Virus record (IMG/VR): IMGVR_UViG_2595698517_000001
Coordinates: 92,177 to 156,176 of that record
Origin: a virus
Lineage: Duplodnaviria > Caudoviricetes
Reading direction: 5' to 3' (one strand)
DNA: 64,000 bases
Each line of letters begins with the position of its first letter. Within the stretch, counting starts at the first letter, position 1. Of the stretch, positions 62,951 through 64,000 are shown piece after piece. The position numbers were made by a program, and so were the translations under genes. Below the pieces are notes generated by a model that saw only the letters and a program-made list of their open reading frames with translations, had not been told where the DNA came from and made no database searches.

Positions 62951-62981
62951 AAAAAAAGCCCTTCGGCACAAAGGACTTTTT
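62951..62981 (-). terminator. Terminator closing the candidate ncRNA
   Basis: AGTCCTTT-loop-GAAGGGCT followed by a T-run on the minus strand. Confidence 0.75.
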
Positions 62982-62997
62982 AATGTATACTATGAAA

Positions 62998-63346
62998 TTT
63001 TGCTACCACATCAGCCACAAGGCAACTACGGAGACCACAAGTGAACTCTCGCAAACCTGGAACAGTGGATTTTATCGAACTTTATCGGGCTATACCTTCT
63101 TGGTAGTCTTTGCCCTCTTTGATCTGTTAACTATGACCTCTGATATATAAGAACTTTGAGTTTTAACCTTTAAGCTGTGAACTTTGAGCTTTTACCCAGT
63201 TGTATGTCTCTGTGTCCACCACTGAGACTATCATGTAAGTAAGCTCTTTCGGCTTAATATTTGGTTAGGATTTTATCCTACAAAGTTCATACTATATCGT
63301 CAGTATGTAACGCACTTGGTTTGTAGTTGTCGATGTAGCAGCAAAA
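62998..63346 (-). ncRNA. Candidate ~350-nt structured RNA with paired ends and a heptamer array
   Basis: 15-bp terminal helix UUUUGCUGCUACAUC/GAUGUGGUAGCAAAA with two G-U pairs valid only on the minus strand, further nested pairings, four internal hairpins, no ORF. Confidence 0.7.
63105..63192 (-). repeat. Degenerate 7-nt tandem array, consensus ANAGNTY
   Basis: AAAGCTC AAAGTTC ACAGCTT AAAGGTT AAAACTC AAAGTTC tt ATATATC AGAGGTC ATAGTTA ACAGATC AAAGAGG gc AAAGACT. Confidence 0.75.
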
Positions 63347-63376
63347 GGTTTCCCCCTCGTTAGAGGGGGTTATTCA

Positions 63377-64000
63377 CTAAGCTAATTCAAGCTCTGTCTT
63401 CGCATTGCTCTCAGAAAGAACAACGTCAACATCTAACTTGAACTTGGTGATGCGCTCTGTTAACTCATCGATCTCCTTACGAAGAGCTAATGGGTCAACT
63501 AAATGAGGTTCGTAACGTTTTTTCACGTTCTTAACGATACCGTTATGCTCCTCATCTGTTAGAGTACGATCATTAGGCTTGTCTTCCGCAAGACGTTTAT
63601 CAGTTTGCTGCTCTAAGTGCTGTACAGCGTAGTTATACGTGTTAACAACTTGAGAGTACTGATTACGTAAGTGCTGAAGAAGCGCTTCCTCGTGGATGAT
63701 CGAGTCTTTACGGTCAATTGCTTCAGCAACTGTCATCGTCTCAGTACCGATCGTTACAAGGGTTTCTGCATTTGACTTAATGATTGCAGCCTTGATTGCA
63801 TTTCTACGTTTGATTAAATCATTTGCCGATTGGTATTTAGCCTTGATTGTTTCTTCACACTCTTTTACAGAGTTGAATCCTTCAGGCTTACCATTATCAC
63901 CTACGTAAAGGGACATGAAAGTTTGATTCGTTGCCTTACGAATGCGGTCTCCTAAAGTCTTTAACTCCATTAAACCACGTTGTACTGACATCTTTTCCAT
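63377..64000 (-). CDS. DIP1984/septicolysin-like long coiled-coil protein
   Basis: IIKSNAETLV...MTVAEAIDRKD and VDPLALRKEIDEL...LSESNAKTEL match the family pattern from memory. The ATG is at the window edge, so the RBS is not visible. Confidence 0.65.
   Translation of the reverse strand: MEKMSVQRGLMELKTLGDRIRKATNQTFMSLYVGDNGKPEGFNSVKECEETIKAKYQSANDLIKRRNAIKAAIIKSNAETLVTIGTETMTVAEAIDRKDSIIHEEALLQHLRNQYSQVVNTYNYAVQHLEQQTDKRLAEDKPNDRTLTDEEHNGIVKNVKKRYEPHLVDPLALRKEIDELTERITKFKLDVDVVLSESNAKTELELA

Follow-up and report, generated by a model that had tools for sequence, protein, structure and literature searches.

A periodic heptad array in a structured non-coding RNA next to a DIP1984-like protein gene of phages and bacteria

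In Bacillus, the TRAP protein binds the trp leader RNA at about 11 repeats, each of which is bound by one subunit of the protein ring, so that the number of repeats equals the number of subunits. The sites are GAG or UAG triplets that are 2-3 nucleotides (nt) apart, which gives a period of 5-6, and lie in an mRNA leader. HutP recognises NAG triplets with 4-nt spacers and hence a 7-nt period, arranged as two sets of three in the terminator/antiterminator leader of the hut mRNA. Large and ornate non-coding RNAs of phages are exemplified by GOLLD and ROOL, which are found near tRNA genes and fold or multimerise alone. In the VIPR systems, which are mostly encoded by phages, the vrRNA has a length of about 100 nt, contains 9-16 short tandem units of GGY and NN followed by an invariant pseudoknotted 3' tail and is often present several times per locus; the small gene beside it encodes Vipr, a RAMP protein with an RRM fold, a G-loop and a thumb, which coats the vrRNA while the hypervariable free NN bases read DNA targets (bioRxiv 10.64898/2026.04.26.720920), and Vipr polymerises along the repeats into a filament (bioRxiv 10.64898/2026.04.26.720927). 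Here we analyse an array of 7-nt units on the minus strand of a 64,000-nt stretch of phage DNA (IMG/VR record IMGVR_UViG_2595698517_000001, positions 92,177 to 156,176; the window in the following). The array is part of a conserved non-coding RNA that stands directly downstream of a gene for a 207-amino-acid (aa) protein, and it may act as a docking ruler for this protein.

The 551-nt intergenic region around the array was 100% identical to the Bacillus phages PBC6 and BC01 and about 70-93% identical to other phages of the B. cereus group. By its sequence, the source is a PBC6/BC01-like Bacillus cereus phage of the genus Tsarbombavirus (Herelleviridae, Bastillevirinae). The initial annotation had described twelve degenerate heptamers with a common phase, two 2-nt offsets and a bias at certain positions, and this was reproduced exactly on the minus strand at 63192..63105. 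The first block consists of AAAGCUC, AAAGUUC, ACAGCUU, AAAGGUU, AAAACUC and AAAGUUC and is followed by UU; then come AUAUAUC, AGAGGUC, AUAGUUA, ACAGAUC and AAAGAGG, a GC and finally AAAGACU. Positions 1 and 3 are A in 12 of 12 units, position 4 is G in 10 and position 6 is U in 10, while positions 2 and 5 are mixed. The best six in-phase heptads matched A.AG.UY at 29 of 30 positions, compared with a maximum of 21 elsewhere in the window on both strands; when the 371-nt intergenic stretch was shuffled 5000 times, 29 was never reached (highest 23). Tandem Repeats Finder detected the first part of the array only (63154-63192, period 7, 5.6 copies, score 36).

The periodic units are real, but the count of twelve had to be revised at its end, where units 11 and 12 overlap with a hairpin that is inserted into the array in this lineage. 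Unit 11 (AAAGAGG) runs into this hairpin, whose outer pairs (GGGC 63115-63112 with GCCC 63090-63087) are invariant and correspond to the RNAalifold pairs 206-209 with 238-241, whereas the inner pair 218-232 varies (UA in 7, CG in 2) and three different inner stems are present in PBC6, Caeruleovirus and Deep Blue. Because the GC spacer and AAAGACU both lie inside the covarying hairpin, AAAGACU is probably not a true unit. The relatives close their arrays with (A/U/C)AAGUUC, followed by GAUnAAAUCC. The PBC6 array, with six units, UU, five units, the inserted hairpin and a final AAAGUUC, has the architecture that is the norm in the family, i.e. seven units, UU and five units.

A profile of the Bastillevirinae RNAs found only one weak distant match with nhmmer (L029, E 0.0012), and the RNA family was traced via the protein gene and not via an RNA profile. 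In tblastn searches the partner protein was found in 730 phage records including phage T5, the commonest organism names being Salmonella (284), Escherichia (140), Pseudomonas (58), Vibrio (55), Klebsiella (32) and Bacillus (30). It was also present in 302 IMG/VR stretches and in the genomes of at least 104 bacterial species. Behind the gene, an unannotated gap of 335-440 nt was observed in T5, phiPsa374 and pSal-SNUABM-01. The genomic context is the portal gene in this phage, tRNA genes or a DNA gyrase/topoisomerase-like gene in others and early genes in T5, and in the chromosome of Bacillus zhangzhouensis the pair stands among housekeeping genes. The neighbours of the module vary and include anti-defence, immunity, integrase and tRNA genes as well as Tad2-like neighbours in 2 loci; the genes upstream of the partner are very diverse, and no other constant neighbour was found when the upstream proteins of 94 loci were scanned. 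Since the context varies while the gene and the RNA stay together, the module consists of the gene plus the RNA. On the level of sequence comparison, gene and RNA form a module of two parts that is complete in itself, with the RNA always directly behind the gene, and that occurs in bacterial chromosomes as well as in many large virulent phages.

The comparison of the repeats over the homologous loci, which the initial annotation had named as a check on its own reading, did not refute this reading: the periodicity was present at every distance that was sampled. Units were chained with an iteratively built weight matrix, with upstream regions and shuffled regions as controls. The mean chain score was 47.5 (minimum 21.0) in the real phage regions, and the control maxima were 23.9 for upstream and 23.6 for shuffled regions; 61 of 63 phage loci scored above the controls, and 79 of 80 bacterial loci above 24. 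Similarly, of 61 distinct downstream regions from IMG/VR, 52 had a spectral power at a period of 6.5-8.5 above that of every one of 100 shuffles, and in 60 of the 61 loci this power was higher downstream than in the upstream control. The family logo reads A (.83), A (.76), A (.65), G (.61), N, U (.83) and Y (C.42, U.39). Among 926 gaps from unit to unit, 622 were exactly 7 nt, 128 were 8 and 69 were 9. In the nearest other genus, Caeruleovirus, the spectral peak is at 8, because small insertions shift the phase, and in T5-like phages it is at 7.5-8; the strict 7-nt phase holds inside the blocks and not over the whole array. The commonest size of the bacterial arrays is exactly 12 units (41 of 79 distinct arrays), and their commonest gap pattern is 777777-9-7777, which means seven units, UU and five units that pass directly into GAUnAAAUCC. 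This clustering at 12 is what a ruler would predict and agrees with the earlier suggestion that the number of repeats could set a stoichiometry. The heptad itself can differ between clades: AAUGNUY was found throughout a Clostridia set (L171, L177, L183, L190, L195, L196), and AAAANUY in a second set (L083, L106, L112).

The rate of change at each unit position was determined as the mean pairwise difference between orthologous loci from five bacterial clades with 34 sequences. The values for positions 1 to 7 were 0.04, 0.07, 0.20, 0.15, 0.35, 0.05 and 0.22, compared with 0.07 for the 3' core of the RNA, 0.05 for codon positions 1+2 of the partner gene and 0.30 for its third codon positions. 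In these alignments, positions 1, 2 and 6 are as constrained as codon positions 1+2, and position 5 drifts like synonymous sites. The position-specific conservation, which according to the initial annotation is not expected from slippage, is therefore genuine and under purifying selection. As read from the sequences, such a pattern of rates fits neither a helix, nor a guide to a conserved target, nor a guide in an arms race.

The array sits within a non-coding RNA of about 350 nt (about 63348 to 62998, with the terminator to 62951). Its assignment to a structured RNA is well founded, since P1, the pseudoknot and the 3' core all have compensatory changes. P1 is a closing helix of 15 bp with an RNAduplex energy of -24.3 kcal/mol. 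The homologues have helices of 13-21 bp with unrelated sequence at the same place, the duplex was better than all 50 shuffles in 47 of 96 homologues, and between PBC6 and Caeruleovirus a U-A pair is exchanged for C-G. From compact bacterial homologues, the start of the RNA could be placed immediately behind the stop codon of the partner gene. The block ACGWUAUAGU (63300-63291) had been considered as a promoter and as the boundary of the RNA and was dropped, as the bacterial homologues place the start after the stop codon. A pairing of the array units 9-11 with CUGAUGUGGUAGC that was proposed by RNAalifold was also dropped, because the bacterial homologues pair this 3' strand with the 5' strand of P1.

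The conserved 3' core, which follows the array, has the order GAUnAAAUCC and P4, then some 55 nt, and behind them the partner strand of P4 and GGCUG. When the regions were picked by the motifs alone, both core motifs were 50-62 nt apart in 93 of 137 distinct homologous regions. All three variable pairs of P4 were Watson-Crick or G-U in 90 of these 93, whereas this was the case in 2 of 93 when the partner was slid by 2 as a control. The pair types were UA 44, AU 33, CG 8 and GC 6, and for another pair GC 29, UA 27, AU 23 and CG 12. The covariation score was 0.548 versus 0.156 for shuffled alignments in a set of 49 sequences, and 0 of 500 shuffles scored as high; since this set was preselected with a pairing filter, the motif-only test with 93 sequences is the fair one. 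The pseudoknot between the 5' junction and the loop of P6 changes on both sides, from CAAGUG/CACUUG in PBC6 to CAAAUG/CAUUUG in Caeruleovirus. A complement of at least 6 nt was seen at the equivalent site in about 50 of 97 family members, as read by eye from the list, with many other complementary variants across the family, of which each 6-nt match is singly not significant. Among 10 distinct Bastillevirinae relatives, the alignment has 79% column identity with covarying hairpins. The 5' hairpins show compensatory changes, e.g. at the pair 24-43 (UA:5, GC:3, AU:2), the P3 stems differ by eye, and the terminator-like hairpin with its T-run is kept in 10 of 10 with differing stems. The minimum free energy (MFE) fold of the single sequence was uninformative (z -1.42). 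Taken together, the compensatory changes show an RNA that is closed by P1 and tied by a pseudoknot between the 5' junction and the hairpin loop of the 3' core. Rfam 15 had no match in the window at the gathering threshold, where the best sub-threshold E-values were 4.5 and 5.6, and in 8 homologous loci the RNA was also without a match. In two other loci from Sericytochromatia metagenome-assembled genomes (L181 and L194), a tRNA-like T-arm sequence (GGUUCGAUUCC) was found between the protein gene and the array, in the first ~130 nt past the stop codon; there, the place of the usual 5' domain may be taken by a tRNA or an element resembling one.

The 207-aa partner protein matches phrog_1491 with an E-value of 5e-76. 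Its AlphaFold2 model is mostly helical with four short strands and has a predicted local distance difference test (pLDDT) score of 93.2. The sole clear structural match was 3kdq, the DIP1984 protein of Corynebacterium diphtheriae (DUF6847), with a Foldseek E-value of 1e-3 and a probability of 1.00; VIA-align gave a Z-score of 11.2 with 150 of 152 residues aligned at a root mean square deviation of 8.4. The Atlas structure row for the partner is a DIP1984 family cluster. By structure, the partner shares the fold of the DIP1984/DUF6847 family, although the Corynebacterium protein has about 150 aa and the one described here 207 aa. In sequence it stays below the cut-offs of this family (PF20935, 16.1 bits versus 27; NF038048, 14.6 versus 70), and searches of Pfam, NCBIfam, PADLOC and the PDB sequences gave nothing above cut-off. 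Because the 3kdq protein is uncharacterised, the fold match explains nothing of the mechanism. Two conserved S-N-A-x-T motifs are found in the partner just before beta-strands.

The protein carries other labels in the databases. PHROGs (phrog_1491) and many RefSeq records, among them that of T5, name it a tail fiber protein, and one phage record calls it septicolysin-like. The T5 gene, T5.085 (L038:2492-3130), sits among early genes with RNase H, an exonuclease and early promoters. The tail-fibre label is doubtful because a helical DIP1984-like bundle is predicted and the T5 gene lies among early genes, and it looks like a propagated misannotation. In the Salmonella phage pSal-SNUABM-01 (L040:1274-2002), the start of the DIP1984-like gene is overlapped by a gene with a ProQ/FinO domain (PF04352, E 3.5e-7). 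The module would then share its operon with an RNA chaperone.

Expression was followed in public reads of T5-like phages. In one RNA-seq run the contig depth was summed, a poor measure that was taken from contigs only and from a distant homologue; it was about 0.25-0.49 million across the gene and 1.0-1.3 million in the ~150 nt with which the RNA begins. Just past the predicted 3' end the depth dropped more than 100-fold, to 54,640, then 5,145 and then 1,395. This is a weak and indirect hint that the RNA is expressed. Two small RNA immunoprecipitation sequencing (RIP-seq) libraries (X11 and X12, ~0.65 million letters each) contained the T5-like gene and RNA (L111:1150-2300) inside contigs of 4.3 kb with a depth of ~50. 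In the RIP-seq data and in one RNA-seq run, the T5-like region occurred only within contigs of 4-14 kb, which are silent on a discrete RNA.

We propose that the heptads form a periodic docking ruler for a protein, most likely the co-encoded one, and from the sequence evidence we give this reading an even chance of being correct. The upstream gene is the only constant neighbour and therefore the candidate partner of the array. P1 and the knotted core would draw together both ends of the ~86-nt array, which would then be presented as a central loop. Every heptad would be the docking site of a single protomer, or of a single binding surface, of an oligomeric protein that reads the fixed A-A...U, and the co-encoded protein could read the heptads via its two S-N-A-x-T motifs. 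The array loop would be coated or wrapped, and the number of units together with the fixed UU break would set the copy number and the geometry of the particle. The varied neighbours, with anti-defence, immunity, integrase and tRNA genes, suggest an accessory or a conflict function. A candidate for a specificity switch that is matched to the heptad is the first serine of the protein motif L-[S]-E-S-N, which is nearly invariant and stands next to the second S-N-A-x-T motif. This residue is S in 116 proteins with mostly A3 G4 in the unit, Q in 7 (U3 G4), V in 3 (A3 A4) and A in 2 (C3 G4).

What speaks for a ruler, which the initial annotation had inferred by analogy with TRAP and Hfq, is the structured RNA, the selection on the unit positions, the periodicity in the homologues and the clustering at 12 units; the supposed single-strandedness of the array was not supported by folding, and the tests for a TRAP, HutP or Hfq system failed. 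In thermodynamic folding, the mean probability of being unpaired was 0.43 for the array, 0.41 for the rest of the RNA and 0.48 for the array shuffled in place, and the array was more open than its own shuffle in only 22 of 91 cases, so that folding does not mark it as especially unpaired. No match to TRAP (TrpBP, PF02081) was found in the 156-kb phage record, although the control search did find the B. subtilis TRAP, and the record had also no match to HutP (PF09021) or Hfq (PF17209). As the phage encodes none of them, these proteins are analogies only. Besides the folding result, several other observations weigh against a ruler that is read by the partner protein. This protein matched no known RNA-binding family and is not basic (isoelectric point 6.0 here and 5.1-7.8 in relatives), and the correlation of the L-S-E-S-N residue with the unit motif was not significant when the phylogeny was controlled (5 supported independent pairs, median p 1). 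Outside the Bacillota chromosomes the unit counts are less uniform, with 12-19 units in a generous chaining method, and the gap downstream of the gene in pSal-SNUABM-01 had no significant heptad periodicity in the spectral test. The weakness of the contig depth as a measure of expression counts on the same side.

The array could also be a matter of RNA architecture alone, in which A-minor or other tertiary contacts or an intermolecular AGCU/AAGCUU pairing allow the RNA to fold by itself or to multimerise, and the protein is a chaperone or unrelated. Self-complementary AGCU is frequent in the units, and in canonical arrays the best stack of 4 bp links the AGCU of unit 1 with that of unit 7. Folding predicts a partial pairing of the array, the core of the RNA is compact and knotted, and tRNA genes are nearby in phages, as for GOLLD and ROOL. 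However, the C of AGCU is at position 5, the freest of all with a rate of 0.35, which means that AGCU is not selected. A covarying helix within the array was not found in the 12 sequences, the only ones with the exact pattern of 7 + UU + 5, the conservation of A1, A2 and U6 beside a neutral position 5 is not helix-like, and the lack of Rfam matches includes GOLLD and ROOL. We therefore regard an architecture of RNA alone as unlikely. Still less probable is a noncontiguous guide like the VIPR vrRNA, where protomers would hold the fixed bases and the free ones (position 5, partly 3, 4 and 7) would read a DNA or RNA target. The ~12 units, the invariant pseudoknotted core and the adjacent gene parallel the vrRNA layout. 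On the other side, the partner is a helical DIP1984-like protein and not a RAMP, the unit is the 7-nt AAAGNUY and not the 5-nt GGY/NN, and there is a single RNA per locus. Position 5 drifts near the synonymous rate (0.35 versus 0.30), and the free positions are not hypervariable: by our own count PBC6 and QCM8 differ by 6 changes in ~88 nt at 92.8% overall identity, and the same array stretch was found in all six T5-like loci inspected. A combination of guide and ruler, to which we assign an equally small likelihood, would have ~12 copies of the DIP1984 fold polymerise on the fixed bases of an array that the pseudoknotted core keeps as a closed loop, while the free bases are displayed and read a nucleic-acid target by a noncontiguous code; this would be a second, independent solution to the VIPR logic in a conflict between phage, host and mobile element. 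The array would then be the RNA half of an unrecognised and very widespread class of repeat-coded ribonucleoproteins, present in T5 and its relatives, Herelleviridae, jumbo phages and many chromosomes of Bacillota.

In another explanation, the array would act as a sponge or decoy and capture a nuclease or an RNA-binding factor of the host that recognises AAG/NAG or A-rich repeats (HutP-like, Hfq-like or an endoribonuclease), and the phage protein would only stabilise the RNA. The NAG at a 7-nt period is the spacing of HutP sites, the RNA appears abundant in the T5-like infection, albeit by a weak measure, and in some phages the module is near tRNA and anti-defence genes (Tad2-like in 2 loci). 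Yet the same module stands among housekeeping genes in bacterial chromosomes, the constant partner is the co-encoded protein, and the spread of the module over phages of Bacillus, Escherichia, Pseudomonas and Vibrio is not compatible with any one host factor; some hosts of these phages are not known to have HutP. A decoy thus seems improbable, about as much as a guide. The array might finally work as DNA, as iterons of an origin or of a packaging or regulatory site, with incidental RNA features. Short phased repeats are typical docking sites for proteins on DNA, and in this phage the portal and head genes follow shortly behind the locus. But the strand and the orientation of the array relative to the protein gene are constant while the genomic context is wholly different between phages, and the 7-bp period is mismatched to the helical repeat of DNA. 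The compensatory changes in P1, P4 and the pseudoknot are sensible only in a transcript and argue against a role at the DNA level, for which we see hardly any chance.

A comparison of the proposed docking ruler with the described systems shows likeness in the plan and differences in the parts. With VIPR, it shares short tandem units with fixed and free positions, a structured pseudoknotted 3' tail and an adjacent small protein gene. In contrast to the vrRNA, it has 7-nt AAAGNUY units in one ~350-nt RNA that is closed by the long P1, its partner is helical and DIP1984-like where VIPR has a RAMP, and its free position drifts neutrally, unlike the hypervariable, target-matching NN. Since the unit, the fold, the size of the RNA and the behaviour of the free position all differ, the module is not a member of VIPR. 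TRAP sites differ from the array by its period of 7 (622 of 926 gaps), its AAAGNUY unit and its place in a stand-alone knotted RNA. The spacing of HutP sites is reproduced, as positions 3-4 read AG in 10 of the 12 heptads in 7-nt phase, but here the RNA stands alone downstream of a gene and is not a leader. GOLLD and ROOL have no match in sequence or structure here and are without an obligate partner gene or a heptad array.

All genes around the array are on the minus strand in the order 207-aa open reading frame (ORF), 551-nt gap, 96-aa ORF, portal and prohead protease, and the RNA region is single-copy within the record. The coordinates are collected in Table 1. The short hairpin behind the stop codon is a possible attenuator or processing site; relatives keep it with altered stem letters, and in the bacterial relatives inspected no counterpart was seen, as their stop codon runs straight into P1.

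Table 1. Positions of the gene and of the RNA elements in the 64,000-nt window
Feature	Position	Strand	Remarks
207-aa helical protein gene	63377..64000	-	ORF; invariable partner upstream of the RNA; its start coincides with the end of the record
Hairpin CCCCCUC-UAAC-GAGGGGG	63352..63369	-	directly after the stop codon (UAG 63379-63377)
P1, 5' strand (CCUUUUGCUGCUACAUC)	63332..63348	-	pairs with 63012-62998
Pseudoknot, 5' strand CAAGUG	63313..63318	-	complementary to CACUUG in the P6 loop
Variable 5' hairpins	63206..63279	-	P2, AAGC/GCUU hairpin and P3
P2	63279-63267	-	AGGAU/AUCCU
Short hairpin	63255-63241	-	AAGC/GCUU
P3	63228-63206	-	GUCUC/GAGAC
Heptad array, units 1-11	63114..63192	-	six units, UU 63150-63149, five units; conservation of the sequence over 10 distinct RNAs of Bastillevirinae
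Hairpin GGGC...GCCC, a lineage-specific insertion into the array	63087..63115	-	covarying inner stem
Canonical last unit AAAGUUC	63077..63083	-	directly before the core motif GAUAAAAUCC; outside the array as initially annotated
Conserved 3' core	63012..63076	-	GAUAAAAUCC 63076-63067, P4, P6, GGCUG 63016-63012
P4	63068-63065 and 63018-63015	-	CCAC with GUGG
P6 hairpin	63050-63047 and 63034-63031	-	GAGA/UCUC; the loop holds the pseudoknot 3' strand CACUUG 63043-63038
P1, 3' strand (GAUGUGGUAGCAAAA)	62998..63012	-	pairs with 63348-63332
Intrinsic terminator-like hairpin, then U7	62951..62982	-	MFE fold

Between the terminator of the RNA and the 96-aa ORF, the segment 62826-62950 (minus strand) is 97-98% identical to TsarBomba-like phages, in which the RNA region itself gave no blastn match. 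This segment holds UGAUAUAAU, an extended -10-like box, and is probably the promoter of the operon with the 96-aa and portal genes. In several relatives, an additional ORF of 262-280 aa (phrog_3783, 'tail spike') is located between the RNA and the 96-aa gene (L003:1990-2778, L004:1991-2830, L006:1979-2818, L007:1807-2646). PBC6, CM1 and Deep Blue are without this ORF, and the site directly behind the RNA is a hot spot of insertions and deletions. In 6 of 6 relatives inspected (L002-L007), 6-8 tRNA genes form an array upstream of the homologue of the 207-aa gene, with 30-50 nt between the end of the array and this homologue. As the record is cut exactly at the start codon of the 207-aa gene, its opposite end would be the place of the tRNA array.

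A published description of the RNA or of the gene-RNA pair was not found in literature searches or in two 2026 preprints, although bioRxiv supplements could list such clusters. Even on the most modest reading, the comparative data point to a new, large and well-supported family of structured RNAs, which merits an Rfam entry and with which the annotation of hundreds of phage genomes would be corrected. The module is a testable case for an RNA whose number of repeats fixes the stoichiometry and the shape of a particle, and it adds a non-RAMP counterpart for comparison with the repeat-coded RNAs of VIPR. If the docking ruler is true, T5, a family of Bacillus phages and more than 100 bacterial species would carry an unannotated RNA-protein machine with a ruler of 12 steps.

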